From the NCBI GenBank assembly GCA_040261535.1, contig JBDQNU010000008.1, forward strand, positions 8,322 through 72,321: 64,000 bases of DNA. Direction: 5' to 3'. Positions within the stretch are counted from its first letter, which is position 1. Each line of letters starts with the position of its first letter. Below, one piece after another: positions 3,178-22,469 of this stretch. The position numbers and the translations under genes were made by a program. The notes under the pieces are model-generated. The model was not told the DNA's origin and made no database searches. It saw only the letters and a program-made list of their open reading frames with translations. This stretch comes from Poseidonia sp. GTDB lineage: Archaea; Thermoplasmatota; Poseidoniia; Poseidoniales; Poseidoniaceae.

Positions 3178-3639
3178 ATGGTGGCGAAGGCGGTTGGCCT
3201 TCATGTCAATCCGCAAGGTGGTGTGCCCAAGTACCCTGTTGATTATCTCGTCGTGCAGGTGAACGGTTGTGCCGGTGATAAACAACGTGACACGCGCCAC
3301 CATGGCGGACCGGACCGAGCCGTTTGCCTTCTTCTGACTTCGGTGATGGAACAGCTTCAAGCCGACGGCCATCCCATTGAGGCAGGCTCGACCGGAGAGA
3401 ACCTCCTCATCGACGGACTCCCGCCGGAATCTTTGCACGTTGGTCGGCGTTTACGCATCGGGGACGTTGTTTTGGAACTCACCAGCGACGCACCGCCTTG
3501 CAAAACCATTGTTTCATCGTTTGAAAACGGCATGTTTCGAGCGTTAAGTCACAAGCAGATCCCCGGACAAACTCGGTGGTACGCACGGGTTCTGGTTGAA
3601 GGGACCGTTCGCTTGGACGACGCTGTGCACCTTCAGTGA
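3178..3639 (+). CDS. MOSC domain-containing protein
   Basis: ORF 2968..3639 trimmed to ATG 3178, just after the EF-2 stop. The 153-aa product has MOSC-like elements (HGGPDRAVCLL, GENLLIDGL, PCKTI). Confidence 0.6.
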   Translation: MVAKAVGLHVNPQGGVPKYPVDYLVVQVNGCAGDKQRDTRHHGGPDRAVCLLLTSVMEQLQADGHPIEAGSTGENLLIDGLPPESLHVGRRLRIGDVVLELTSDAPPCKTIVSSFENGMFRALSHKQIPGQTRWYARVLVEGTVRLDDAVHLQ

Positions 3640-5384
3640 AGTCTTGCGAGTTGGAAGTCGGTCAACTCCCGCAGGGCAACCAAAGCAGGCCCGTCGTCGA
3701 TTCGGTCAAGACATGCATGCGCTTGCGTGTGGAAGGCCTCCGCCATTTCCCGAGCGTATTTGACGGAACCCAATTCCTGAAGGGCTTGCAGGCCGTCGCT
3801 CAGGGCTTCTTGTCCAACCGCCTCGCCTTTTCCAAGGACGGCCAGAAGCCGGTCTTTGACCGGTCCTTCGGGCTGACGAAGAGCGTGAATGACCATCAGT
3901 GTGCGTTTTCCTTGAGCAATGTCGGAGCCTGCAGGCTTGCCCAAGGTTTCCGAATCCGAGAGAACATCGATGATATCGTCCATCAGTTGGAAGCAGAGGC
4001 CGACGGCTTTCCCCCAATCGGCCATCAATTGGACGGTTTCCTCATCAGCGCCCGAAATACGGGCTCCGATTTCAGCACAAATCAAGAACATGACCGCGGT
4101 TTTTCCTTCGATCATTTCCAAGTATTCATCTTCGGATACGCCAATCCGGTCTTCAAATTCAATGTCCAATTGCTGGCCTTCGCTCACTCGTCGGACCATC
4201 CATGCGATGCGGTTCACCAGCGGTGCGACATCGGTTGGCTCAAGATTCTCCGCCTGGACGAGCCGTTCAAAGGCAATCGCGAGCATGGCGTCACCCGCAT
4301 TGATCGCCGTGGGCATGCCGTATTCCACGTGAACGGCGTTTCTTCCACGCCGAACTTCGTCGTCGTCCATGATGTCATCGTGGACCAGCGTGAAATTATG
4401 AACGGTTTCAATGGCCGCTCCAATGTCGAGAAGACCTGAATGGGCTTCACCAACAGCCTTTGCAATGAGCCAAGGTAGCGTGGCCCGCATGCGTTTACCA
4501 CCGCCCTCGATGAGGTGCATCATGGCGTTGCCCAACCGTTCATGGCGCGACGCCCGTAAGCTTGATTCAATCCTCGCTTCAATGAGCGGCTTGACCTCCA
4601 TGATGGAGGTGAGCAAATCAGCCCCTTCAGCGCCGGGGAGCATGTGGCTGATGTCGCCCATGTCGTGGATTTTGTCATCGGCCAGTTCGGCAAGTTTGGT
4701 GGAATCGGCGTGATGACGCCACCAATCTTTGGTCATGATGCGGGCTGCGATGGAACGGAACCACGGGGCTACGGCGTTTTCGGGTTGGCGTTCTTCAATG
4801 AGCATGGCTTCCAGTGCTTCGTGGTCAACCCACATCACCTCCGCCACCTCGTTTGGATTGGGGTTCAATTCAACATCGGCCGTCATGACCATGATGTGAT
4901 CGATTTCTCGTTCAATCCATTCGGCATTCATCCGGGATGCATACCGCATTTTGGTCATGAAGGTCATGTCGTCTTCGGAGACTTGGGAGGGAGGAATTCC
5001 CAGTTCTTGTTCCAATTTTCGAACGGCGGCCCGCTTCACGCCCATGGCATTTTCCTCGTCCAATTCGGCCTCTGCGTGGAGCGGATGGGAGCAGCATGCA
5101 TTGGCCCAAACACCGGGGAACGTGACTTTGTCCATCGAGCGACGTTGCAACAACATTTCGCCTTTTGAGTTGAACAACAGCAAACTGAACGCACGATGGA
5201 ATGCACCGGGCCCTCGGTGCGCTTCCAATTTCGACAGCGATCCAAGAACCTCATCCCGTTCATTCACCTGAATGACCGCTTCGGCCATGAGTGCAACCTG
5301 GGCTTCATCCTGGCTTACGAGCGACGAGCGCTCGGCATCGGACAATTCAACACGCGGAACATCCTCAATGCTGTATCCCGCCAT
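3633..5384 (-). CDS. fusion protein: type-1 isopentenyl-diphosphate delta-isomerase (Nudix) plus geranylgeranyl/polyprenyl diphosphate synthase
   Basis: The N-terminal ~230 aa carry IDI-1 signatures (WANACCSHPL, EWIEREIDHIMV). The C-terminal ~340 aa carry trans-prenyltransferase motifs: first Asp-rich LVHDDIMDDDEVRRGR, second Asp-rich FQLMDDIIDV, and GKPAGSDIAQGKRT. It is one uninterrupted 583-aa ORF. Confidence 0.85.
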   Translation of the reverse strand: MAGYSIEDVPRVELSDAERSSLVSQDEAQVALMAEAVIQVNERDEVLGSLSKLEAHRGPGAFHRAFSLLLFNSKGEMLLQRRSMDKVTFPGVWANACCSHPLHAEAELDEENAMGVKRAAVRKLEQELGIPPSQVSEDDMTFMTKMRYASRMNAEWIEREIDHIMVMTADVELNPNPNEVAEVMWVDHEALEAMLIEERQPENAVAPWFRSIAARIMTKDWWRHHADSTKLAELADDKIHDMGDISHMLPGAEGADLLTSIMEVKPLIEARIESSLRASRHERLGNAMMHLIEGGGKRMRATLPWLIAKAVGEAHSGLLDIGAAIETVHNFTLVHDDIMDDDEVRRGRNAVHVEYGMPTAINAGDAMLAIAFERLVQAENLEPTDVAPLVNRIAWMVRRVSEGQQLDIEFEDRIGVSEDEYLEMIEGKTAVMFLICAEIGARISGADEETVQLMADWGKAVGLCFQLMDDIIDVLSDSETLGKPAGSDIAQGKRTLMVIHALRQPEGPVKDRLLAVLGKGEAVGQEALSDGLQALQELGSVKYAREMAEAFHTQAHACLDRIDDGPALVALRELTDFQLARLH

Positions 5385-5438
5385 TGTTTCACCGACCGGA
5401 CGTGGTCGCGGAGGATAAATGAAGAGTTCTCCTTCATT

Positions 5439-6248
5439 TCATGCTACCAATGTCGTGCCTCGGACCGGATGTCCAAGACAAGCACCAGCAACCCGCTCCT
5501 CGGTCTCACCGCTTACCAAGACGACTTGCACACCGTGATCGAGCACGCGGAATCCTCGTTCAACCTTCAACCCGATGCCGCCGGTAACGTCGATTTCTGA
5601 AGCATGGTCGCCTTCGAAGACTTGTTTTTTGTTCAGGGTTTTCAAGAGGTTTTGTTCCTTATCCGGTTGAGGGGGCTCCGCCAAAACGCCATCAACTCCG
5701 CCCATTGCGAAGACGAGGCGTTTCACTCGTGGTAATTCTATGGCGAGCCGAACGACCAGGTCGTCCCCGGAGAGAATACCAAACTCCGAGTCGCCATCGC
5801 ACTCAACAACATCCCCGTACGTCACGAGAACGATCCCCGGAGGGGCACCCTCGAACAACGAGAGATCACCGTCAAAATTGGGTCCCGTGTTGCGTGCCCA
5901 TTGATGGGGTGGAAGCGTCACGGCACTGATGTCTCGCTTGGTGAGGGCCTTCATCACGTGCTCGTTGAGGTCGAGCATATCTTGGCGCACTTCTTCGACG
6001 GCTTCGTCTTGGGTCAGTTCGCCTTCGATGCCCTGAGCATCGACACGCCCCTCCGCAAGGCGGTATTGTTTTGCTTTCAGATGGCCGAACGAACCTGCCC
6101 CGTGAACGAGGATCACGTCCATTTCATTGTCCAAGCACGCCTCGAGTTGTTCAGCAAGGTTGTCAAGAACGTCGGTACGGACCGTCTTCAACGCTGCCTT
6201 GTCGGTGATGAGGCCACCGCCCCACTTGATGACGACGCGTTCCCGCAT
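5439..6248 (-). CDS. ipk: isopentenyl phosphate kinase (amino-acid-kinase fold)
   Basis: ORF 5439..6365 trimmed to the Met giving MRERVVIKWGGGLITDK. The HGAGSFGH motif and an ILSGDD segment are present. Length is 269 aa. It sits next to the IDI-GGPPS gene. Confidence 0.8.
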   Translation of the reverse strand: MRERVVIKWGGGLITDKAALKTVRTDVLDNLAEQLEACLDNEMDVILVHGAGSFGHLKAKQYRLAEGRVDAQGIEGELTQDEAVEEVRQDMLDLNEHVMKALTKRDISAVTLPPHQWARNTGPNFDGDLSLFEGAPPGIVLVTYGDVVECDGDSEFGILSGDDLVVRLAIELPRVKRLVFAMGGVDGVLAEPPQPDKEQNLLKTLNKKQVFEGDHASEIDVTGGIGLKVERGFRVLDHGVQVVLVSGETEERVAGACLGHPVRGTTLVA

Positions 6249-6333
6249 GACCTTGCGAAGGAATCGGGCATGATGAGGATGCCGTTTTTTTGTGGAGCAA
6301 GGATTCATGAGGCATCGTGGTTCAGCGAGATGC

Positions 6334-6669
6334 ATGAGCGAAGAGCCAACCGTAGACGCTTTCATGCGTCATTTGCAAGTTTGCCTTGAAGAGGCACGAA
6401 CCATTGCAGACGGGAAAGAGCGACAGGAACGTTGCTGGCAGTTGGAATCCGCGCTTCAAGAAGCCATCATTTACAAAAATCGAATCGAGGAACTGCAACG
6501 TCATGGTCTCGATCCCGTTCGGCTTGTGGAGGCAGACGGTGTCAATACACCTGCGCCGGCTCCGAAAAAAGTAGAGGCTCTCATGTCCGGTCATGCCCAT
6601 TGCGGAACCTGCAGGGCTGTTTTGGAGCCCGATTTGGCGTTCTGCCCCGCTTGCGGTGCAGAAAAGTAA
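6334..6669 (+). CDS. hypothetical protein with C-terminal zinc ribbon
   Basis: The ORF ends HCGTCRAVLEPDLAFCPACGAEK (CxxC-x11-CxxC). A coiled-coil-like segment lies in the middle. The start (ATG 6334 versus 6292) is uncertain. No family recognised. Confidence 0.45.
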   Translation: MSEEPTVDAFMRHLQVCLEEARTIADGKERQERCWQLESALQEAIIYKNRIEELQRHGLDPVRLVEADGVNTPAPAPKKVEALMSGHAHCGTCRAVLEPDLAFCPACGAEK

Positions 6670-6675
6670 GGGGCT

Positions 6676-7374
6676 TCACTCTTCTTCTTCACGAATCCAC
6701 TCCTCGATGACCTCGAGGATGAGTGGGTCTTCAGCATCGACTTGGTAGAGGTACTCTCCGGGGACTTCGTCGGTCAAGAAAACCGTCGTTCCAGCGCGAT
6801 AAATGGTGTGGCCGTCGGCGATGGCCCGAACGGTGTCGACTTCCAGAATAGCCGGGCGGTCAATACGAACGTGGCCGGCTTCCATGGCGTTTTGGATTGA
6901 ACGGGAAAGATGGACGTTCTTTCGGTCGCCCGAAGTGATGCCGTATTCGAGCATGGTGGGAACCTCCTCCGGTTCACACGGATAGAACAGGGCTTCGGGA
7001 ATGTCGTCCGTGGGCAAATCGAGGTCCAACTCAATGGAATGCCCGTAGGTTGCACGAATCATGCCGTTTTCAACCTGGTATCGTCCTTTCTCATCGGCAT
7101 TCGCAATTGCCTCGAAGTGCCATCCGCGCAGCCAGTGGTAGTGGCGGCGTTGGTTGCCGATAGCCTCCGAGAGTTCACGGGTGTTGACCCAGCCGTTGAT
7201 GTCCATGTCAACGTTGAATTTCTCTGGGGCGTGGCGCAGAACCAAGGCCAGCATACGACCAAGCGAGTTAGCTTCACGGTCGCTCATGATGAATTTCCCT
7301 TCATCGTTGCAAACCGCACAGTTGGTTCCTGAAAAGTGTCCATGGCTTCGGCATTGGCGTAGCATGTTGTCCAT
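6676..7374 (-). CDS. kptA: RNA 2'-phosphotransferase (Tpt1/KptA family)
   Basis: LGRMLALVLRHAPEKFNVDMDINGWV, RYQVENGMIRATYGHS, NVHLS and TIYRAG segments match the Tpt1/KptA HxS and HLS architecture. There is an extra Cys/His-rich N-terminus (CRSHGHFSGTNCAVC). Confidence 0.8.
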   Translation of the reverse strand: MDNMLRQCRSHGHFSGTNCAVCNDEGKFIMSDREANSLGRMLALVLRHAPEKFNVDMDINGWVNTRELSEAIGNQRRHYHWLRGWHFEAIANADEKGRYQVENGMIRATYGHSIELDLDLPTDDIPEALFYPCEPEEVPTMLEYGITSGDRKNVHLSRSIQNAMEAGHVRIDRPAILEVDTVRAIADGHTIYRAGTTVFLTDEVPGEYLYQVDAEDPLILEVIEEWIREEEE

Positions 7375-7481
7375 GCGGGCGAGGCCTGTTCAAGAACCCT
7401 GCGGGTTGGAAGTCCGTTGAACATGATGAGCGTGGTCTTCTTCGCCGTGGGTATGAAATGCTGCCGATGGTTGCGTTGGTC

Positions 7482-8654
7482 ATGGTGGATGTTGCCGTTG
7501 TCGGCGCAGGTCAAACACGGTACGGTAACCACGACTTGGGCCTGAAGGGGATGTGGGCGGAAGCCGCACGAAGTGCCTTTGCCAGCGTTGACGGCGACTT
7601 CGATGCGAAGATGGTCGACGAGGCATACATCGGCAGTTTGGCTTTCGGCGGTGCCCAACTCGGCAACACTGCGGCCCTGTTGACAGAACATTCTGACATG
7701 GAGGGTCTCCCCGTTCGAAGAGTCGAAAATGCCTGCGCGTCTTCGGGTTTTGCATTTCGGGATGCGTGGATGGCGATCAAAAGCGGTCAGGCCGATGTCG
7801 TGGTCGCCGGTGGTATCGAAAAAATGAATGATCTGACTCCTGAGAGGAGGCGGTATTGGCTGGGCGTTTCCGGAGACACGGAATGGGAGCGACTTGCTGG
7901 GCTCACGTTTCCGGGTACATATGCCCTCATGGCCCGTCGTTATTTCCATGAATTTGACGCAACCCACGACGATTTGGTCCATGTGAGCGTCAAAAACCAT
8001 CTTCACGGTTCGCTCAACCCACTCGCCCACATCCAAAAGGAGGTGGCGTTTGAAAAAGCGGCTTCTGGCTTCATGGTTGCTGACCCGCTCACGCTCTACG
8101 ATTGTTGTCCAACATCGGACGGAGCCTCATGCGTTGTCTTGGCTGCAGACCATGTCGCAAAGCGGATGACGGACACACCCGTTTGGGTTCGGGGGTCCGG
8201 TGCTGCCTCCGACCATCTGGCTCTTCACGACCGTCCATCCATCACCCAACTCAAAGCCACCCAAACGGCAGGACGAAAAGCCTACGAAATGGCGAACTTG
8301 ACACCCCGAGACATTGATCTTGCCGAAGTTCATGACTGCTTTACCATCGCTGAAGTTCTCGCAACCGAAGACCTCGGATTCGCTCAACGAGGAGAAGGAG
8401 GGCGCTTCGCTCGCGAAGGCCAAGGCATCATCAATCAAGGAAGCGTGGCGGTGAACGCCAGCGGGGGGCTCAAGTCCAAAGGCCATCCACTCGGAGCAAC
8501 CGGAACCGGCCAAGTGGTTGAGGTTTTCAAACAACTGCGAGGCCAAGTGGAATCTCAACGACAGGTGAAAGGTGCTGAAGTCGGATTGACCCACAACGTT
8601 GGGGGCTCGGGTGCCACGTGTGCCGTCCATGTGTTCGGGAGGGATCGGACATGA
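7482..8654 (+). CDS. acetyl-CoA C-acetyltransferase (archaeal thiolase, SCP-x-like)
   Basis: VAVVGAGQTRYG, the active-site Cys context VENACASSG, GHPLGATG and NVGGSG are all present. Start trimmed to MVDVAVVG. It lies in the mevalonate context. Confidence 0.85.
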   Translation: MVDVAVVGAGQTRYGNHDLGLKGMWAEAARSAFASVDGDFDAKMVDEAYIGSLAFGGAQLGNTAALLTEHSDMEGLPVRRVENACASSGFAFRDAWMAIKSGQADVVVAGGIEKMNDLTPERRRYWLGVSGDTEWERLAGLTFPGTYALMARRYFHEFDATHDDLVHVSVKNHLHGSLNPLAHIQKEVAFEKAASGFMVADPLTLYDCCPTSDGASCVVLAADHVAKRMTDTPVWVRGSGAASDHLALHDRPSITQLKATQTAGRKAYEMANLTPRDIDLAEVHDCFTIAEVLATEDLGFAQRGEGGRFAREGQGIINQGSVAVNASGGLKSKGHPLGATGTGQVVEVFKQLRGQVESQRQVKGAEVGLTHNVGGSGATCAVHVFGRDRT

Positions 8655-9481
8655 CCGCAGAGGTTTGGATGGGCTATCTCGTGGACCATTGTCCGGATTT
8701 TACGGTGGTTCAATCTCCCTTTGTCCTTGGCGATGAACGCGTCTTTGGTGCTGATAGCGACGCCACCACCCTCTCGATTGCTGCGGTTCTTCATCGACTT
8801 CAACACGAGAACGTTGCCTCGGTGGCCGTGCCCGAAGGGATTGATGCAGATGCCCTATCCACGGCTTGCAACATTCAAGTTTGGGACAAAGAATCCGAGA
8901 GCGAACCGGATTGGGATTTGTTGTTGAGCGAAGAAGCCATTCTCGTTCTTGCACGGCCGGGTGCGGAGGTTGAGATTTCCGTCATGGATGTCGCCGTTGA
9001 GGTGGACCAAGCGTTCCACGAAGCCATCGTTGCTGCTTGGGAGATGGAGTTGAACGTGCTCCATGTCAGTCAGGGCGCTTACGTATCCCAAGCCCAATAT
9101 GTTGAAGCCGCCAGCCCGAGGCTATCGCTTTCGGGACAAATGGGGCGCAACGGAGCCGTTTGGCCTCCACGATATTCAGCCAACACGAGTCAGAAGGAAA
9201 ACGGCGTTCACCGCTTAACGCCCAGTGGACGTGTTCTCTCGTGGACCACGCTTTCTGCCGCAGGTGCACCATCTGAATTTTCGCTACGAGCGCCGTTGCT
9301 TGGCGGTGTCAGCACCGTCTTGCTCGAACTCGTCGATGGACCAAACGGGGTGTTTTTGGTCGTTGACGATGAAGAACCTGAACTCTCCATGGATGCTCCC
9401 ATGGAATTGGTCGTTCGACGGATTTACGCTCAAGAGGGATTCATCCGCTACGGCTTGAAGGCCCGAGCCATGCCGGCCTGA
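8651..9481 (+). CDS. DUF35/OB-fold-like protein with a Cys-less zinc-ribbon remnant and an unassigned ~160-aa N-terminal domain
   Basis: The ATG overlaps the thiolase stop (ATGA at 8651-8654). The C-terminal GRVLSWTTL...VSTVLLELVDGPNGVFLVVDD...MELVVRRIY...YGLKA looks like the DUF35 OB fold. The preceding GQMGRNGAVWPPRYSANTS resembles the DUF35 ribbon (C..CG..fPPR..C..C) with all Cys replaced. Confidence 0.5.
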   Translation: MTAEVWMGYLVDHCPDFTVVQSPFVLGDERVFGADSDATTLSIAAVLHRLQHENVASVAVPEGIDADALSTACNIQVWDKESESEPDWDLLLSEEAILVLARPGAEVEISVMDVAVEVDQAFHEAIVAAWEMELNVLHVSQGAYVSQAQYVEAASPRLSLSGQMGRNGAVWPPRYSANTSQKENGVHRLTPSGRVLSWTTLSAAGAPSEFSLRAPLLGGVSTVLLELVDGPNGVFLVVDDEEPELSMDAPMELVVRRIYAQEGFIRYGLKARAMPA

Positions 9482-9518
9482 CAAAGGATTCATACAACGC
9501 AAAGTCTACCGCAAAAGC

Positions 9519-10535
9519 ATGGCGGGATTTGGCGGTATGCGCAAAGGTCGTGAAGAGGCCAAAGACAACCTCGGTTATACCGAAGGCGGGGATTGTCCTC
9601 GTTGCGGTGGAAGTTCACAAGATTCGACGATGGCGGGATACCTTCAATGCGGCTCGTGCGGACACGAGTGGGCCGATCCCAATCATGTTGAACAGAAGAA
9701 GCGGCCTGCGCCACCAACCCATCAACGGGATGCCGAGCTCATTGAACAATTCAAACAAGAGATGGCCTCGGGAGAATTGGCGAATGTTCTCGGTGTGAAC
9801 AAGAACCTCTCCGGCGAACAGGAACAATCGCTCAAGCGGTTGGAGGAGAAGTGGATGAGCGGTATGCAGGGCCATTACAACGCTGCTGCAGAAGAACGCA
9901 AACCGCTTATGATCAGTTTTGACGACGACGACAACATCGTTTCCACGGAAGTCGCTGCCATCACCATTGTTTCAAACGGTTTTGACGGTGGCGAAGAAAT
10001 CCGGTTGGAGTACCCCGGGCTGGGTACGGAGTTTTACGCCTACAACGAGCGCAGCCCTACCGGTTGGAAGCGTGGACCAAACGCCGAGACGACCGCTAGG
10101 TCCATCACGAACGTCATCAACCGGTCGTCCAAACTGGTTTATGCAACCTTGGAAGGGGTACGAATCTCCTTCGAGTTGCGTGATGAGAACCTCAATGCGT
10201 CGTCGTTTGTCATCTTCGTCGATGACCCTGGTGGGACCGATATCGTTGCAGAAAAGGGTGGCGTCGTGTTGGATCACCGTGATTTCTCGACCATACAGGA
10301 TTACAGGACCGTCGTTGAGATGGTTCTCGAAGACGGCATTATTTCACCAAGTGAGGATCAACTCCTCTGGGCCATGCGGCAACAATTGAACATCGATGAT
10401 GCCTATCACATTCAGGTGGTCATGCAACTTTGTGGTGAAAACACCCTCAAAGAATGCACCTCATGCGGTGGTATGGCTGAGTTGTATCCCGAACACGCTG
10501 CATGGTACTGTCATCCCTGCGATTCGTGGTGCTGA
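9519..10535 (+). CDS. hypothetical protein with N- and C-terminal zinc ribbons
   Basis: The N-terminus has CPRCGG-x15-CGSCGH and the C-terminus has CTSCGG-x13-CHPCDSWC. About 230 aa of unrecognised sequence lie between them. It is 128 nt upstream of the actin-like gene on the same strand. Confidence 0.6.
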   Translation: MAGFGGMRKGREEAKDNLGYTEGGDCPRCGGSSQDSTMAGYLQCGSCGHEWADPNHVEQKKRPAPPTHQRDAELIEQFKQEMASGELANVLGVNKNLSGEQEQSLKRLEEKWMSGMQGHYNAAAEERKPLMISFDDDDNIVSTEVAAITIVSNGFDGGEEIRLEYPGLGTEFYAYNERSPTGWKRGPNAETTARSITNVINRSSKLVYATLEGVRISFELRDENLNASSFVIFVDDPGGTDIVAEKGGVVLDHRDFSTIQDYRTVVEMVLEDGIISPSEDQLLWAMRQQLNIDDAYHIQVVMQLCGENTLKECTSCGGMAELYPEHAAWYCHPCDSWC

Positions 10536-10663
10536 TTCCAGCGTCGTAAAGCGTTCTATAGGGAGGCGGATGGCCATCGGTCTCATGCTTCTGAGTTCAT
10601 CGGCCGTATTTCGTTTGGGGACTCTTCATAAACTCAAGTGATGTCCCAAACTACGGTGAGCCT

Positions 10664-11689
10664 ATGGCGAAAGATGTGTTGTATATCGGAATTGACTTGG
10701 GAACCTTCCGTTCAGTGATGGTTTCTTCTGACAGCCACGAAGTGGAAGAATTGACCGTGATTGGAACGCCCAAGGACCCCATCGCACGGAACTTTTTGAA
10801 GCGCGATGTTCTCTTTGGGAACGAGGCGCTCAAAAACCGACTTGCTCTCAACCTTTTCCGGCCCTTGGAGCTCGGTGTCATCAAGGACACGCCAGAAGAC
10901 CGTGAATTCATTGCTCACTTCATCACCCATCTCATCGGTCTATCCGATCCTGAAGACTACGACCGCGTGGTCGCTGTTATCGGTGCGCCTGCCGAAGCAA
11001 GCCACGTTGACAAAACCGCCATCTTTGATGCAGCAGCGGGCTCTGTGAACTCCGCTATGATCATCTCCGAACCGTTTGCCGTCGCTTACGCTCTCGACAT
11101 GATCAACCATACGCTGGTCATTGACATCGGTGCAGGAACGACTGACCTTTGCCGCGTTTACGGTACCATCCCAGGACCCGGTGACCAAATGCACACCGGT
11201 CACGCCGGTGACTACGTCGACAACCAACTCATCAAAGAAATCCAATCCAAGTACAACGGCGCACAAATCACCAAGGACATGGCTCGACGCTGGAAGGAAG
11301 CCTACTCGTTCGTATCGACGGCAACTCCCGATGAACCTGTTCTCGTGGACTTTTCCATAGAAGGAAAGGCCATGACGCTCGACATCACGGATTGCATGCA
11401 GCGTGCATGTGAATCCATCGTCGACCCCATTGTGGAGAACGTCAAGAAACTCATTGCTGGTTCCAACCCCGAATACCACGATGAGTTCCGCAAGAACATG
11501 GTTCTCGCTGGTGGCGGTTCTTCCATCAAGGGCCTCGGTGCCCTCATCGAGCGCCGTCTCTCGGACATGGGCGACGTCAACGTTCACGTTGTCGACGATC
11601 CTGTTCGCTTGGGCGCCATGGGCGGTCTTCGCCTCGCCATGGAAGTTCCCGAAGAGATGTGGAAGAACCTCACTCTCGCTTCCCGTTGA
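10664..11689 (+). CDS. actin-like ATPase (MreB/MamK/Ta0583-like)
   Basis: Actin-fold motifs are present: phosphate-1 IGIDLGTFRS, connect SEPFAVAYAL, phosphate-2 LVIDIGAGTTDL, adenosine LAGGGSSIKGL. Length is 341 aa. Confidence 0.8.
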   Translation: MAKDVLYIGIDLGTFRSVMVSSDSHEVEELTVIGTPKDPIARNFLKRDVLFGNEALKNRLALNLFRPLELGVIKDTPEDREFIAHFITHLIGLSDPEDYDRVVAVIGAPAEASHVDKTAIFDAAAGSVNSAMIISEPFAVAYALDMINHTLVIDIGAGTTDLCRVYGTIPGPGDQMHTGHAGDYVDNQLIKEIQSKYNGAQITKDMARRWKEAYSFVSTATPDEPVLVDFSIEGKAMTLDITDCMQRACESIVDPIVENVKKLIAGSNPEYHDEFRKNMVLAGGGSSIKGLGALIERRLSDMGDVNVHVVDDPVRLGAMGGLRLAMEVPEEMWKNLTLASR

Positions 11690-11783
11690 TTTCAACGGTT
11701 GCTTCCTCGTCAGCCCCGGGAATTCAACCCGCTTGCTCGGCCAGCATGAGAGATGATTCTAGCCGTTAGCGGACACAAACCGT

Positions 11784-11810
11784 AGGTGGAAGCCTCTCCA
11801 CCTGCTTTTT
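11784..11810 (+). terminator. hairpin plus T5 tract downstream of the actin-like gene
   Basis: aggtgga-agcctc-tccacct forms a 7-bp stem and is followed by gcttttt. It lies 95 nt after the stop in a convergent intergenic region. Confidence 0.4.
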
Positions 11811-11828
11811 GACCCGTCAAGCTTGATT

Positions 11829-12488
11829 TCAAGCGTTTCCGGCTTTTTCAACTTCGGCCCAGTCTCGCATAAAGCCCTCAAGGCCCTTGTCGGTGAGGGG
11901 GTGGCTCATGAGTTGACGGAAGGTCTTTGCAGGCATGGTTGCCGTGTGAGCGCCGAGTTGGATGCACTGCAAGACATGCGTGGGGTGTCGTATAGATGCT
12001 GCGAGCACCTTGGTGTCTAAGTTGTAATTTGCCCACGTGTTCATGATTTCGGCAATGAGTTCCATGCCGTCGTGTCCGGTGTCGTCGATGCGTCCGATGA
12101 ACGGGGAGACATAGGTGGCGCCTGCCTTCGCAGCCATGAGGGCTTGGGAGGCGGAAAAGATGAGCGTGACGTTGGTGTCAATGCCCTCTTCGGTGAGAAT
12201 CTTCGTGGCGGCCAAGCCTTCGGGCGTGCACGGGATCTTGATAATTACGTTTTCCGGCAGGTCAGCTTTGAGTGCACGACCTTGTTCCACCATTCCGGCC
12301 GTATCCATGGCCGTTACTTCAGCGGAAATCGGGCCTGAGCAAATGCCGGCGATTTCTCGGACGACTTCTTTGAAATCGCGCCCCGATTTTTTGATCAGCG
12401 AGGGGTTGGTTGTCACGCCGTCGAGGATTCCCCATGCGGCGATTTCTCGAATTTCATCCACGTCTGCAGTATCAAGGAAGAACTCCAT
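11829..12488 (-). CDS. tal: transaldolase / fructose-6-phosphate aldolase family (short type)
   Basis: [28 protein letters not shown] and YVSPFIGR are present. Length is 219 aa after trimming to the Met at 12488. It lies downstream of the split tkt. Confidence 0.85.
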
Positions 12489-12547
12489 GGTCCTCGTTCC
12501 TACAAGGGATTCTATGAACTCTCCCCTGCGATCTGAACCACCGATTT

Positions 12548-13483
12548 TCACTTGCGTGTGATGGCTCGCTTGGCTGCTTCGGCGATGTATGGTGCCGAAA
12601 TTTCCATGACTTCCAGCATTTCATCGGATTGTCCCGACTCTCCGAATCGGTCTTTGACGCCAACGCGCTCAAGCGGTGCGTAGGTGTTAGCGGTGAGATG
12701 TTCCGCTACGGCCCCGCCTAAGCCCCCGATGACGCTGTGGTCTTCGGCCGTCACCAAGGCACCGCACGTTGAGACAAGATTGTCAATCAACTGGCCGTCC
12801 AGTGGCTTGAGGGTGTGCATGTCGACCACGCTGGCTTGGATGCCTTCCCCTTCGAGGGCTTCAGCGGCCTTGAGGGCTTCCGAGACCATCACACCGCAAG
12901 CGACGATGGCTACATCGCTTCCTTCTTTGAGCACGATTCCCTTCCCGATTTTGATTTCGTTTTCGCGTCCCTCGTAGAGAACGGGGGTTTTGTTACGAGC
13001 TGTTCTCATGTACGAAGGTGAAGATTCGCCAGCGAGTTGAATCGTGAGTTCCTTGGTCGAAACGACGTCGCTTGGATGCATGACGATGACGTTTGGAAGG
13101 GTCCGGAAAATCGCTAGATCTTCGATAGATTGCGCCGAAGACCCGTCCGTGCCCGTATGCGTACCGCCGTGGCTTCCACAAACGTGGACGGCAAGATTTG
13201 GTCGTGCAACACCATTTCTCATTTGTTCAAAGGCACGTTCGGTAAAAATCGCGAAGGTGCTTGCAAAGGGAATGTATCCCGAGGCTGCAAGGCCTGCACC
13301 AACCAGCAACATGTTTTGCTCGCCGATACCGCAGGAAACGGTCCTTTCCGGGTGGGCCTTTCGAAAGTGGAGTGATTTCGTGGATTTTCCAAGGTCGGCT
13401 TCGAGAACGACGACTTTCGGGTTGTTGGCCAGTTCGAGGAGAGCATCGCCGTACCCGTCTCGGGTCGCTGCCATCTTGGTCAT
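12548..13483 (-). CDS. tkt: transketolase, C-terminal (pyrimidine-binding) subunit
   Basis: [19 protein letters not shown] and [16 protein letters not shown] are present. The start overlaps the stop of the N-terminal subunit (ATGA). Confidence 0.9.
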
Positions 13484-14304
13484 GCACTCACCTCGCCAAG
13501 TTCTTGCATGGCCAATGCGTATTGCTCGTCGTTCGGCGCTGCACCGTGGAAGGCGGGGTTGTCCGCCATGAACGAAACCCCATGACCTTTCACGGTGTGG
13601 GCAATCAAAATCGAAGGGCCATCGTTCGTTGAGGAGAGGAACTGCATTCCATCCATGATCTCCTCCATGTTGTGGCCGTCAATTTCCTTCACGTTCCAAC
13701 CAAACGCCTTCCATTTTGCTGGAATGTCAAACATGCGCATTTGGGCTTCACAAAAGTCGTCGTTTTGGATTCGGTTCCGGTCCAAAATGACATTGAGGTT
13801 TCCGAGTTCGTGGTGTGCTGCCGCCATGGCCGCTTCCCAAACGCTGCCCTCTTGGATTTCTCCGTCACCGAGCATAACATAGACTTGGCGTTCACTTTGT
13901 TCAAGACGTCCAGCGATGGCGGAACCCAATCCAAAGGACAGTCCCATGCCGAGCGATCCTGCTGAAAAATCGACACCGGGACACCATTTCATGTCGACGT
14001 GACCTTGACAAACGCCGCCGAGGACTCGATAGGACGACAAGTCTTCTTCGGATATGAATCCCATTTCGGCGAGAATGGCGTACATGCCCGGGGAAGCATG
14101 CCCTTTCGAGAGGATGAAGCGGTCTCGGTCTTCCCAACGGGGTTCCGATGGGCGAACGCGGAGGGTCGTTTTGTAGAGGGCAACGAGCAAATCGATTTCA
14201 GATAGGGAGCCCCCGGGATGGCCGGCTTGTGCCCGATGCACCATGTTCACGATGTGGACGCGACAACGTCGAGCAAGTTCTCGTAATTCATCTGCACTCG
14301 CCAT
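13480..14304 (-). CDS. tkt: transketolase, N-terminal (TPP-binding) subunit
   Basis: AGHPGGSLS, ILSKGHA and the GDGEIQEGSVWEA TPP-binding motif are present. Confidence 0.9.
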   Translation of the reverse strand: MASADELRELARRCRVHIVNMVHRAQAGHPGGSLSEIDLLVALYKTTLRVRPSEPRWEDRDRFILSKGHASPGMYAILAEMGFISEEDLSSYRVLGGVCQGHVDMKWCPGVDFSAGSLGMGLSFGLGSAIAGRLEQSERQVYVMLGDGEIQEGSVWEAAMAAAHHELGNLNVILDRNRIQNDDFCEAQMRMFDIPAKWKAFGWNVKEIDGHNMEEIMDGMQFLSSTNDGPSILIAHTVKGHGVSFMADNPAFHGAAPNDEQYALAMQELGEVSA

Positions 14305-19512: not shown

Positions 19513-20721
19513 ATGGAAGCCTTGAGGGTGCCTCAACCGCTCGCAGGGGAATCCCCTGAGTGGTTGTCAAACCTTGATGCCCTCCTGGAGAGACAGGGTG
19601 GCTGGTCAACGGCGTTGCATGGCATCATCACCAAACTCAAATTCAACACTCCCCTTACGGTTGAGGATGGTCTGACACTTTACCACCATCCGAACCTCTC
19701 CGAGGTTGGTGCCCTCGCCAATGCGGTTCGCACAGCGCGATTCGGACGGCAAGCCTTCTTCAATTCAAACGTGCACATCAATCAGACCAACGTGTGTGTG
19801 CTGGCGTGCCGATTTTGCGCTTTTCGTCGTGGGCCAAAGGCCAAGGATGCGTACGCAATGAGCGTGACTGAATATGTAGAGGACCTGGGGAAATATGCCC
19901 ACGCCGTGGATGAAGTGCATTCCGTGGGCGGACTTCACCCGGAGTGGGATGTTTCTCACTACGAACAGATGTTTCGTGAAACCCGTTCCGCCTATCCTCA
20001 TGTATCGATCAAAGCCCTCACGGCGGTTGAGATCAAACATCTTGGCCAACGCTCCCAAATCACCACCAAAACCGTTCTCCAGCGGCTAAAAGATGCAGGC
20101 CTCACATCGTTGCCTGGTGGAGGAGCAGAAATCCTCGATGACGATGTGCGAGCGATCATCTGCAACGGGAAGGAAAGCTCGGAAGAATACCTTCGCATTC
20201 ATCAAGAAGCCCACGAGGTTGGTCTGCCGTCGAACTGCACGATGCTCTTTGGGACCGTTGAAACGCTTGAACAGCGTCTTCAGCACATGATTTCGCTTCG
20301 GGAACTTCAAGCAAAAACGTCTGGATTCCAATGCTTTGTGCCCTACCCTTTCCTGCCCGATCACACCCGTCTCCCCGAAGCCCAACTCGCATCCGGGACC
20401 GAAATCCTGCGAACGATCGCCGTTTCTCGTCTTCTCCTCAACAACATTCCCCACATCAAAGCCTACCGAATGAACATCGGCGATCACGTTGCGGAACTCG
20501 CCCTACAATACGGAGCGGATGATATCGACGGCACCGTGCAAAAAGAGTCGATCATGCATCTTGCCGGTTCTACTGCACCGCTCGACCATGACCGTTCCCG
20601 TCTTGCACGCCTCATCCGTGATGCAGGTTGTGAACCTGTGCAACGGAACACCGTTTACTCAACCTTCACGCCTTACACGGCACCTGAACCAACCCACCGC
20701 CGCCTTCGGATGGCACAATGA
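19513..20721 (+). CDS. radical SAM enzyme of the futalosine pathway (MqnC/MqnE family; the two cannot be distinguished by eye)
   Basis: The NQTNVCVLACRFCAF Cys cluster is present, with CofH/MqnC/MqnE-like length and layout. It lies directly upstream of mqnA and mqnD. Confidence 0.75.
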   Translation: MEALRVPQPLAGESPEWLSNLDALLERQGGWSTALHGIITKLKFNTPLTVEDGLTLYHHPNLSEVGALANAVRTARFGRQAFFNSNVHINQTNVCVLACRFCAFRRGPKAKDAYAMSVTEYVEDLGKYAHAVDEVHSVGGLHPEWDVSHYEQMFRETRSAYPHVSIKALTAVEIKHLGQRSQITTKTVLQRLKDAGLTSLPGGGAEILDDDVRAIICNGKESSEEYLRIHQEAHEVGLPSNCTMLFGTVETLEQRLQHMISLRELQAKTSGFQCFVPYPFLPDHTRLPEAQLASGTEILRTIAVSRLLLNNIPHIKAYRMNIGDHVAELALQYGADDIDGTVQKESIMHLAGSTAPLDHDRSRLARLIRDAGCEPVQRNTVYSTFTPYTAPEPTHRRLRMAQ

Positions 20722-20730
20722 GGTGGTACG

Positions 20731-21531
20731 ATGGAACAACCCACTTGGCTCTCGACCATCGGACGGGTGGCGTTCATCAACTGCGACCCCCTTTTCCACG
20801 GGTTGTCCCCCCGGTGGAATGTCCTTGCAGCTCCACCGTCTTGGTTGACCGGGCACGTGCTGCGAAAGGATTGCATTCTGGCGCCCATTCCCGCCGCTGA
20901 TTACGCAAAACATGCCGATGAACTCCTGTTGTTGCCGGACATCGGCATCGGAAGTCAAGGTGAGGTCGGGAGCGTCCTTTTGTTTGGAGCCATTTCCCTC
21001 GATGCGATGAAAACGATTGCTTTACCCTCCGATTCAGCAACGTCCGTGGCCTTGTTGAAGCACCTCGTTTCAAAACGCGAAATGGACATGAATTACGTTG
21101 ATACGGGTCCCGATTACGAGGCCATGATGTCCCTTGCTGACGGCGCTCTCTTGATCGGCGACCGAGCATTGGAAGCAGCGAGGGAGTTTCCTGAAATGGT
21201 CCAATTGGACCTCGGAAAGGCCTGGATGGAACTGGAGGGTCTGCCGATGATTTTCGGTGTCTTCGTCGCTCGCAGAGATACCCCTGTTGAGGCCCTCCAA
21301 CAGGCCCATCTTGCCTTGGTTGAGAATTTGGCTGCGTTTGAGAACGGTGGTCAACGACGAGAGGAGGTTATCGCCGGGTCAATGGAAAAATCCGGTCTTG
21401 CTTACGAACGTCTCAACCAATACTACGGCGAGGTATTCAATCGGCTTGACGACCATCATTTGGAAGGATTGTTTCGGTTTCTTTCGGAAGCCTGTAAGAT
21501 GGGGACATCCCCAGAGTTTGCACCGATTTGA
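20731..21531 (+). CDS. mqnA: chorismate dehydratase MqnA-like (periplasmic-binding-protein fold)
   Basis: IGRVAFINCDPLFHGL...IPAADY...ALLIGDRAL matches my recollection of the MqnA (DUF178) pattern. The operon context is mqnC/E and mqnD. Confidence 0.7.
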   Translation: MEQPTWLSTIGRVAFINCDPLFHGLSPRWNVLAAPPSWLTGHVLRKDCILAPIPAADYAKHADELLLLPDIGIGSQGEVGSVLLFGAISLDAMKTIALPSDSATSVALLKHLVSKREMDMNYVDTGPDYEAMMSLADGALLIGDRALEAAREFPEMVQLDLGKAWMELEGLPMIFGVFVARRDTPVEALQQAHLALVENLAAFENGGQRREEVIAGSMEKSGLAYERLNQYYGEVFNRLDDHHLEGLFRFLSEACKMGTSPEFAPI

Positions 21532-21590
21532 CCGGGCTTGTTTCAATTTTACAACGGTTGGTTCTTGAAGGGGCTGCGTTTGGAAGAGGC

Positions 21591-22469
21591 ATGGTGGTTG
21601 AACTCCCTCTTGACCTGGAAGGCAACAAAATCGTACGAATTGGCCACAGTCCCGACCCGGATGACGCGTTCATGTTTCACGCCATGACCACCGGCGCCTT
21701 CCCGACGCCCGGGTACACCTTCGTTCACGAACTGCAAGATATCGAAACCCTCAATCATCGAGCGATGAATCAGGATCTCGAGGTTTCTGCTGTTTCCATT
21801 CACGCCTATCCGGACATCGCCGAACATTACGCATTGATGAACTGCGGAGCTTCAATGGGCGAGGGCTACGGCCCCATGGTGGTGTGCAAGCAAGGGGTCA
21901 CTGAGGCCGAGGCAAAGGCGGGTGTCATCGCTGTCCCGGGCTTGAAAACCAGCGCCTACCTCGGACTCCGGTTGGCGTGGGGAGACGTTAACGTGGCCGT
22001 TGTCCCCTTTGACGAAATCATCCCACGAATCCTCGACGGAACCTACATGAGCGGACTCATCATTCACGAAGGTCAACTCACCTATGTGGACCACGACTTG
22101 GATGTTCTGGTCGATCTCGGAAAGTGGTGGAACGGCAGAACAGAAAATTGGCCGATGCCACTTGGTGGAAACGTGGTTCGCCGGGATTTGGGTGAGGACG
22201 TAATGCAGGACATCACCAAATACACCAAAATGAGCATCGAATATGCTCTCAAATCCCCCGACGAAGCACTCGAGTTCGCCAAAGCCTGGGGAAGGGGTAT
22301 TGATGATGAAACCAATCAAGCCTTTGTCAGCATGTACGTCAACGACCGGACCATTGACTACCGAGATGAAGGGCGGAAATCCATCCAGCTCTTCATCAAG
22401 GAAGGCCAACAGATTGGCCTCATCCGAGAGGATTTTGACACGGATTCCATGGTCTTCATTGGCGCTTGA
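21591..22469 (+). CDS. mqnD: 1,4-dihydroxy-6-naphthoate synthase MqnD
   Basis: IGHSPDPDDAFMFHAM, LQDIETLN and VSAVSIHAY are signatures. The start was trimmed from 21528 to the Met at 21591, and either is possible. Confidence 0.8.
   Translation: MVVELPLDLEGNKIVRIGHSPDPDDAFMFHAMTTGAFPTPGYTFVHELQDIETLNHRAMNQDLEVSAVSIHAYPDIAEHYALMNCGASMGEGYGPMVVCKQGVTEAEAKAGVIAVPGLKTSAYLGLRLAWGDVNVAVVPFDEIIPRILDGTYMSGLIIHEGQLTYVDHDLDVLVDLGKWWNGRTENWPMPLGGNVVRRDLGEDVMQDITKYTKMSIEYALKSPDEALEFAKAWGRGIDDETNQAFVSMYVNDRTIDYRDEGRKSIQLFIKEGQQIGLIREDFDTDSMVFIGA

Follow-up and report, generated by a model that had tools for sequence, protein, structure and literature searches.

A window of 64,000 nucleotides of Poseidonia sp. 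DNA (contig JBDQNU010000008.1, positions 8,322 to 72,321) was found to encode an actin of the MamK family and, immediately upstream on the same strand, a double-zinc-ribbon protein that may be its dedicated partner. The two open reading frames (ORFs), located at 9519..10535 (+ strand, 338 aa) and 10664..11689 (+ strand, 341 aa) and separated by a spacer of 128 nt (10536..10663), had been described in an initial annotation of the window, and their positions, orientation, and spacing were confirmed. What was observed directly is which family the actin belongs to, how conserved and lineage-restricted its neighbor is, and that the two genes are invariably adjacent. We tentatively favor the reading that the actin forms a MamK-type filament and that the order-specific zinc-ribbon protein encoded upstream is its adaptor or regulator, following the logic of MamK and MamJ. 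The evidence on linkage, conservation, and selection comes from a single order, Poseidoniales. Named homologues of both proteins were from Candidatus Poseidoniales (Marine Group II, MGII), including the Poseidoniaceae (MGIIa) and the Thalassarchaeaceae (MGIIb), and the host is a Poseidoniales archaeon.

Assignment of the ATPase to the MamK family

The best family match of the ATPase was the NCBIfam model for MamK (NF040964), with a score of 363.4 bits over profile positions 1–331 of 335, about 150 bits ahead of the next family; the curated cut-off of 400 was not reached. The second-best match, BeeR, scored 211.8 bits against a cut-off of 530. The NCBIfam models for MreB were below their cut-offs (PRK13927, 92.1 bits versus 293; TIGR00904, 83.5 bits versus 365.75), and the permissive gathering score of Pfam MreB_Mbl was the only MreB threshold to be passed (92 bits). 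Models for salactin gave 50–60 bits (cut-offs of 27.1 for Pfam and 400 for NCBIfam) and the model for volactin gave 33 bits. Among solved structures, those of MamK (5ljw and 5jyg) were matched with E values of about 1e-75, followed by BeeR (8r2n, E = 3e-44) and MreB structures (E about 1e-13). The alignment with crystallized MamK (5ljw, E = 7.5e-76) extended from residues 2–336 to residues 8–341 with two small gaps and an identity of 40% (132/333). In this alignment, E136 and D154 of the actin correspond to E143 and D161 of MamK, which we take to be the catalytic residues. The five ATP-binding motifs of MamK, which include connect-1 xEPx and phosphate-2 DxGxG (PMC10653835), were all intact: IGIDLGT (residues 8–14), SEPF (135–138), VIDIGAGTTD (152–161), LAGGGSSIKGL (281–291), and LGAMGG (316–321). 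Three of them (8–14, 152–161, and 281–291) had already been quoted in the initial annotation, and its description of the protein as a complete actin-fold ATPase was right, the type being one expected to polymerize. Since MamK was the best model by a wide margin, was matched end to end, and shares the five motifs, the ATPase is, as judged from its sequence, a full-length MamK-family actin. It is best described as a close outlier of this family, falling just under the curated threshold, outside the curated membership, and in no magnetosome context.

The initial annotation had placed the ATPase closest to MamK, MreB, and Ta0583. The likeness to MamK was borne out. The likeness to Ta0583 was not: Pfam MreB-like_C (PF21522, 'archaeal actin homologue MreB-like'), which we take to cover Ta0583-type actins, scored 19.9 bits, under its cut-off of 27.8, and no Ta0583 entry was present among the solved-structure matches at E ≤ 1e-3. 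An assignment to the Thermoplasma type was therefore rejected, and the point made in the initial annotation that Thermoplasma-type actins lack a known partner has no bearing on this protein. The ATPase did not group with Hsp70 (17.8 bits versus 363 for MamK) or with sugar kinases, and identities as Hsp70, sugar kinase, FtsA, PilM, EutJ, or ParM were all discarded, each at 33 bits or less. The score for NCBIfam ParM was 11.8 bits against a cut-off of 417.

In public records, the actin is named 'rod shape-determining protein MreB'. A role in rod shape is implausible because MGII cells are cocci of about 0.7 µm (PMC6864105). An order-wide and highly constrained MamK-type actin is currently mislabeled as MreB. 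Among the best 120 actin matches listed, all were Poseidoniales-like, with identities down to 76%. Based on homology, the actin very probably forms ATP-dependent cytoplasmic filaments, and the 40% identity with MamK points to a two-stranded, MamK-like assembly.

Two additional observations were made on the actin gene. The proportion of synonymous differences (pS) was consistently below that of the neighboring genes in every comparison (0.23 against 0.45–0.55 in the comparison with L001), which suggests strong codon bias and high expression. In one reference, the MG-II chromosome assembly CM001443.1 (L063, about 7100–8190), the actin matched in two pieces, the best segment covering only residues 154–341, which suggests a frameshift or an assembly error in that reference.

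A double-zinc-ribbon protein restricted to Poseidoniales

The acidic protein encoded upstream (9519..10535, + strand, pI 4.65) had 305 homologues, and every named one was from Poseidoniales. The ratio of nonsynonymous to synonymous substitution rates (dN/dS) of its gene was 0.03–0.04, the same as for the thiolase and actin genes, indicating strong purifying selection, with synonymous sites already saturated among Poseidoniaceae. The number of homologues and the dN/dS value place the ORF far beyond chance, and on this comparative basis it is a real gene. Within Poseidoniales, the protein was 52–95% identical and contained about 100 invariant columns, including all eight cysteines; these did not vary among 18 homologues drawn from the two Poseidoniales families. 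A phmmer search of 1.84 billion representatives clustered at 50% identity returned a single full-length cluster, for which reason the full-length family appears to be restricted to Poseidoniales. The remaining matches were metagenome fragments of the same family or weak matches (E = 1e-4 to 1e-6) located nearly all within residues 233–337. One protein of 842 aa (P0186) matched the variable linker (residues 65–99) by six separate stretches (E = 2.6e-4), perhaps owing to low-complexity similarity or to repetition of a helical motif.

The protein is not covered by any family of Pfam or NCBIfam, weak zinc-ribbon matches being confined to its N-terminal ribbon, and no match was found in PHROG or PADLOC. 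Profile scans detected no DNA-binding domain in the protein or its 18 family members, and no arcadin or ParR family. No relative of the zinc-ribbon protein or of the actin was found in 2.9 million viral contigs. A phage or defense origin was rejected in view of the latter result, the lack of PHROG and PADLOC matches for the partner, and the actin having only generic actin-fold matches.

Domain architecture of the zinc-ribbon protein

The two ribbons are formed by C26-x2-C29-x14-C44-x2-C47 and C313-x2-C316-x14-C331-x2-C334. The double zinc ribbon noted in the initial annotation is therefore real; the spacers are x14 in both ribbons and not x15 and x13. AlphaFold models were obtained for the full-length protein (predicted local distance difference test, pLDDT, of 68) and for residues 122–338 (pLDDT of 85, predicted template modeling score of 0.77). 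The N-terminal ribbon (residues 23–52; 9585..9674, + strand) contains the invariant cysteines C26, C29, C44, and C47 and had a pLDDT of 65–82; residues 23–55 were predicted with confidence as a zinc ribbon, and residues 59–141 with low confidence. The N-terminal ribbon matched weakly the Pfam families Zn_ribbon_IS1595 and TFIIB Zn ribbon, and a profile of the ribosomal L37Ae ribbon (E = 0.012). The C-terminal ribbon (residues 308–338, with C313, C316, C331, and C334; 10440..10532, + strand) was likewise predicted with confidence (residues 310–338), with a pLDDT of 85–90 in the full-length model and 90–94 in the domain model. The isoelectric point was 4.6–4.8 for the whole protein and for both ribbons.

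The unassigned core of about 230 residues proposed in the initial annotation resolved into three parts: a linker that is disordered or helical, an alpha/beta domain (about 115 residues), and a TerB-like hairpin. The most conserved segment of the protein comprises residues 99–139 (...LxRLEDKWMSGMQGHYN...ERKPLMISFDDDDN; 9813..9935, + strand), in which 18 of the 41 positions were invariant and the mean majority fraction was 0.83; the conservation peak was at residues 101–140 (0.78–0.87). The same segment had the lowest pLDDT of the protein (28–49). Because the highest conservation coincides with the lowest pLDDT, residues 99–139 are a candidate for a partner-binding motif that would fold on binding.

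The alpha/beta core (residues 140–256; 9936..10286, + strand) had no match in Pfam, NCBIfam, PHROG, or PADLOC. Foldseek comparison of the full-length model with the Protein Data Bank (PDB) gave no usable match, and the model of residues 122–338 resembled the outer domains of flagellin, phage tail sheath, and T7-like nozzle proteins only weakly (TMq about 0.3), which is not diagnostic. These PDB searches retrieved no enzyme fold and no OB fold. As modeled, the core is a domain with no convincing structural or sequence relative. It is followed by three predicted helices (residues 257–305) that correspond to the TerB-like helical hairpin (residues 257–307, LEDGIISPSEDQLLW motif; 10287..10439, + strand). 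The assignment of the hairpin comes from weak matches: TerB (PF05099) matched 9 of the 18 family members, with a best E value of 1.5e-4 and no match for the protein of the window, and ENT matched 10 of the 18, including the protein of the window, for which this weak match was the only one to either family. Of the six full-length proteins among the distant matches (in residues 233–337), four had TerB and/or ENT Pfam matches, two of these together with an AsnC-type helix-turn-helix (HTH). Homology of the protein to the neighboring OB/DUF35-like protein was also considered and rejected (hhalign probability of 0.6%).

Invariant adjacency of the two genes

When a collection of one genome per species was scanned for the zinc-ribbon protein, 170 relatives were identified, of which 80, all of the Poseidoniaceae type, were kept. 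Enough room to judge adjacency was available at 88 loci, 78 of them obtained with the zinc-ribbon protein as the query and 10 with the actin. The actin gene was immediately 3' of the zinc-ribbon gene in all 88. The actin query, which retrieved 75–80% identical actins, including one from a Thalassarchaeaceae metagenome-assembled genome (MAG), revealed a zinc-ribbon homologue (52–63% identical) directly upstream in 10/10 loci. The adjacency holds in Thalassarchaeaceae and deeper lineages, and the genes that the initial annotation had proposed as a pair are co-conserved throughout. The spacer was 70–227 nt long, with a median of 122.

At two loci (L040 and L042), the zinc-ribbon and actin genes had been relocated or inverted together and were separated from the thiolase and OB genes. 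At two others (L085 and L086), the entire block comprising Tpt1, thiolase, zinc-ribbon, and actin genes was inverted. Gene-order strings revealed that the OB gene separates the thiolase gene from the zinc-ribbon gene in Poseidoniaceae only. At least seven different genes were found 3' of the actin gene (transaldolase, p215, p145, p191, p181, ProRS, and p107). The adjacency of the zinc-ribbon and actin genes was the only one in the block that was never seen interrupted or separated.

At three loci (L026, L058, and L079), the archaeal block was present in MAGs labeled as bacterial (Verrucomicrobiales, Rhodobiaceae, and Salipiger bermudensis). The probable cause is mis-binning of Poseidoniales contigs in these public MAGs.

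Promoter-like boxes upstream of each gene

A TATA-like box (TTCATACA; 9489..9496, + strand) is located 30 nt upstream of the ATG of the zinc-ribbon gene. The motif TTCATA(G/C)A was kept at an equal distance in all Poseidoniaceae loci aligned at this start codon, and related boxes (TTGATAT or TTCATAT) were found in some other Poseidoniales loci (L081 and L085). A second TATA-like box (TTCATAAA; 10625..10632, + strand) is present within the 128-nt spacer, 39 nt upstream of the ATG of the actin gene. This box (cTTCATAA) was conserved in Poseidoniaceae loci, with one TTGATAA variant (L041), and GGTTGAAATACC-type boxes occupied the same place in four Thalassarchaeaceae-type loci (L081, L084, L087, and L089). 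Across loci, the boxes of both genes were 25–39 nt upstream of the ATG. The boxes may act as promoters. A promoter motif specific to the pair was rejected, since the TTCATA(R)A box also precedes at least two other gene starts in the window and is read as a TATA-box variant serving several genes. A consensus scan detected no terminator-like site between the two genes on the + strand. It did detect one past the actin gene (11782..11815, + strand), a hairpin with TTTTT after it, which is a match to a bacterial-type pattern only. Judging from the separate boxes and the length of the spacer, the pair probably consists of two transcription units and not of a tight operon.

Genomic setting of the pair

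The G+C content was flat throughout the window (0.50–0.56), indicating that the locus is compositionally native. According to profile scans, the pair is surrounded by housekeeping genes encoding EF-2, a NUDIX-polyprenyl synthase fusion (3633-5384, - strand), a protein of the amino-acid-kinase fold that is probably an isopentenyl phosphate kinase (5439-6365, - strand), Tpt1, a thiolase of the mevalonate pathway (7458-8654, + strand), and a weakly matched OB/DUF35-like protein of 287 aa (8618-9481, + strand). The isoprenoid and mevalonate genes upstream of the pair (3633-8654) were in the order of the window in most loci; at the L040, L042, L085, and L086 loci they were found on the other side of the pair, which they still adjoined. 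For the 287-aa protein, the only match was a weak one to OB_ChsH2_C at the C-terminus. Its gene lies between the thiolase and zinc-ribbon genes in Poseidoniaceae only and was absent from this place in all Thalassarchaeaceae-type loci. The protein is fast-evolving (36–84% identity, dN/dS of 0.13), and its alignment contains no conserved cysteine position and hence no cysteine ribbon.

Downstream of the actin gene, the opposite strand encodes a transaldolase, a split transketolase, and an OPT transporter. The transaldolase ORF (11829-12551, - strand) probably starts at 12488 (MEFFLDTA...) and not at the first GTG at 12551; a box (TTCATAGA) located 30 nt upstream of the start at 12488 is the same TATA-like motif as that found before the pair. 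The transketolase (12548-14304, - strand) is divided into N-terminal and C-terminal genes. Further downstream (19513-22469, + strand), two VitK2_biosynth genes come after a radical-SAM CofH/MqnC-like gene, an arrangement suggestive of a futalosine route to menaquinone.

No mam gene was present among the neighbors (Tpt1, thiolase, OB protein, transaldolase, transketolase, and isoprenoid genes). None of the neighboring genes called in these loci was annotated as mreC, mreD, or rodZ, no search having been aimed at them. No iterated, centromere-like (parC-like) repeats were found in or around the locus, and no structured RNA at the locus.

Discussion

The synteny of the two genes and their shared lineage lead us to infer a two-component cytomotive pairing, in which the zinc-ribbon protein would, by analogy with the adaptors of MamK, most likely be a dedicated adaptor or regulator of the filament. 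As in the case of MamJ, the protein is acidic (pI 4.65), restricted to its lineage (Poseidoniales), and encoded upstream of a MamK-type gene (88/88 loci). The actin would polymerize with ATP into MamK-like filaments, as expected from homology; residues 99–139 of the zinc-ribbon protein would dock on the filament; and cargo would be held, or filament turnover tuned, by the N-terminal ribbon together with a folded module at the C-terminus that comprises the alpha/beta core, the TerB-like hairpin, and the second ribbon. Since MGII cells are cocci of about 0.7 µm, intracellular positioning or segregation would be more plausible than a role in rod shape. A wider proposal, which we regard as possible and hold with more reserve, is that all Marine Group II archaea possess a hitherto undescribed two-protein cytomotive system, in which a MamK-type filament and a novel double-zinc-ribbon adaptor docking via residues 99–139 would position or segregate an intracellular cargo in tiny cocci that lack a wall; the chromosome, a storage body, or a membrane domain could be such a cargo.

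Several observations weigh against a functional pairing. The adjacency of the thiolase and zinc-ribbon genes was nearly as conserved, being broken only by the OB insertion of Poseidoniaceae and at the L040 and L042 loci, so much of the linkage could be due to synteny inherited within a single order. Mirror-tree analysis of Tpt1, thiolase, zinc-ribbon protein, and actin at 58 loci provided no pair-specific co-evolution signal, the partial r being 0.47 for the zinc-ribbon protein and actin versus 0.66 for the zinc-ribbon protein and Tpt1 and 0.52 for thiolase and Tpt1. Co-transcription is not indicated, given the conserved TATA-like box in front of each gene and the spacer of 70–227 nt. These observations would fit genes that are neighbors by descent only, the actin acting alone or with partners encoded elsewhere, and the zinc-ribbon protein being unrelated to it, for example a zinc-ribbon/TerB-type protein with a regulatory or stress-linked role. 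This explanation would also fit the retention of the block from Tpt1 to actin in most loci, from which the adjacency could be inherited, and the occurrence of TerB-like modules in archaeal HTH proteins unrelated to actins. We nonetheless consider it doubtful, since the pair was intact where rearrangements broke all other surrounding adjacencies, including that of the zinc-ribbon and thiolase genes (L040 and L042), the two genes are equally strongly constrained, and lineage-specific adaptors of MamK encoded directly upstream of its gene provide a precedent (PMC10653835).

The adjacency to thiolase raises another explanation, in which the zinc-ribbon protein would belong to the mevalonate module as a DUF35-like scaffold for thiolase and HMG-CoA synthase and would have no relation to actin. 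In all Thalassarchaeaceae-type loci, the zinc-ribbon gene directly follows the thiolase gene (17–90 nt), and isoprenoid genes abound in the neighborhood (isopentenyl-phosphate-kinase-like, NUDIX-polyprenyl synthase, and thiolase). DUF35 proteins are expected to carry a cysteine ribbon, and the adjoining OB protein of Poseidoniaceae, devoid of conserved cysteines, has none. Against such a scaffold, none of the 18 family members had a DUF35 or OB Pfam match, comparison with the neighboring OB family gave the hhalign probability of 0.6% reported above, Foldseek detected no OB fold, and at the L040 and L042 loci the gene departed from the thiolase and OB genes and remained with the actin gene. We judge this scaffold role to be very improbable. 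A chromosomal DNA segregation cassette similar to ParMRC, with the zinc-ribbon protein as a centromere-binding adaptor, is a cargo-specific version of the filament-plus-adaptor reading and appears only slightly less improbable than the scaffold. An actin and a small adaptor make up the layout of type II partition systems, and zinc ribbons can bind nucleic acid. Salactin has reportedly been linked to DNA partitioning. It is the nearest characterized archaeal relative, and MamK is its closest actin-fold subfamily (PMC10746226). However, the ParM model was far below its cut-off (11.8 bits versus 417), no iterated centromere-like repeats were found in or around the locus, no DNA-binding domain was detected in the zinc-ribbon protein, and both ribbons, as well as the whole protein, are acidic (pI 4.6–4.8).

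Poseidoniales, which rank with the most abundant surface-ocean archaea, are uncultured, and next to nothing is known of their cell biology. If the filament-plus-adaptor reading is correct, the pair would provide the first archaeal MamK-type actin with a proposed cognate adaptor and a first handle on the intracellular organization of MGII; the range of MamK-type filaments would widen past magnetosomes and take in the Archaea, and a new adaptor fold would join the known set. If the partner is unrelated, the actin alone would still represent a branch of the MamK family in Archaea that has not been described before. With its invariably linked orphan partner, the actin offers a concrete and cheap experimental target; both proteins are small and soluble-looking and could be produced heterologously. 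A literature search retrieved no paper linking MamK, MreB, or any actin with MGII or Poseidoniales; the reports on BeeR (PMC11929497) and salactin (PMC10746226) treat relatives of MamK and not Poseidoniales.

Comparison with known actin systems

The actin resembles Ta0583 in having a host in the Thermoplasmatota (source names for the locus include 'Thermoplasmatota archaeon') and differs from it in belonging to another actin family (PF21522, 19.9 bits versus 27.8). Prokaryotic actins commonly have a small, dedicated, and adjacently encoded partner that docks via a short peptide, as found for crenactin and the arcadins and for ParM and ParR. The Poseidoniales pair has no sequence relationship with these systems, as illustrated by the low ParM score and the absence of arcadin and ParR matches; it also lacks centromere repeats. 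Like MreB, the actin belongs to the actin superfamily and passes the gathering score of Pfam MreB_Mbl; unlike MreB, it scores far below the NCBIfam cut-offs and is found in coccoid cells (PMC6864105). Salactin and volactin, from haloarchaea, are also archaeal actin homologues. Their models scored only 50–60 and 33 bits, respectively, versus 363 for MamK, and the long charged N-terminal tail of salactin is absent from the Poseidoniales actin. BeeR, the second-best match, is a three-stranded tubular actin of Verrucomicrobiota (PDB 8r2n) and, like the Poseidoniales actin, a relative of MamK; it is found in non-magnetotactic organisms (PMC11929497). In contrast to BeeR, which is defined by a disordered N-terminal extension of 30–50 residues, the Poseidoniales actin has no such extension and starts 7 residues before the phosphate-1 motif.

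The closest parallels are MamK with MamJ in Magnetospirillum and MamK-II with Mg-1g50 in Magnetovibrio MV-1. MamJ, an acidic repeat protein, and the unrelated Mg-1g50 have been shown experimentally to anchor magnetosomes to MamK and to modulate its dynamics; mamJ and mg-1g50 are directly upstream of mamK genes and have no homologues beyond their own lineage, no orthologue of Mg-1g50 being detectable in any other bacterium (PMC10653835). The Poseidoniales pair differs from these systems by its archaeal host, which is not known as magnetotactic, and by the absence of magnetosome genes (mamABIKMQ) nearby. Its partner is set apart from MamJ, as the latter has been described (PMC10653835), by the double zinc ribbon and the alpha/beta core. 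The pair shares with both systems a MamK-type actin (40% identity, end to end, with the same motifs) and a lineage-specific protein, acidic as MamJ is, encoded immediately 5' of the actin gene. From the sequence comparisons, the actin is a new archaeal branch of the known MamK family and its partner represents a new protein family. As a pair, they would constitute a new variant of the actin-plus-adaptor scheme.

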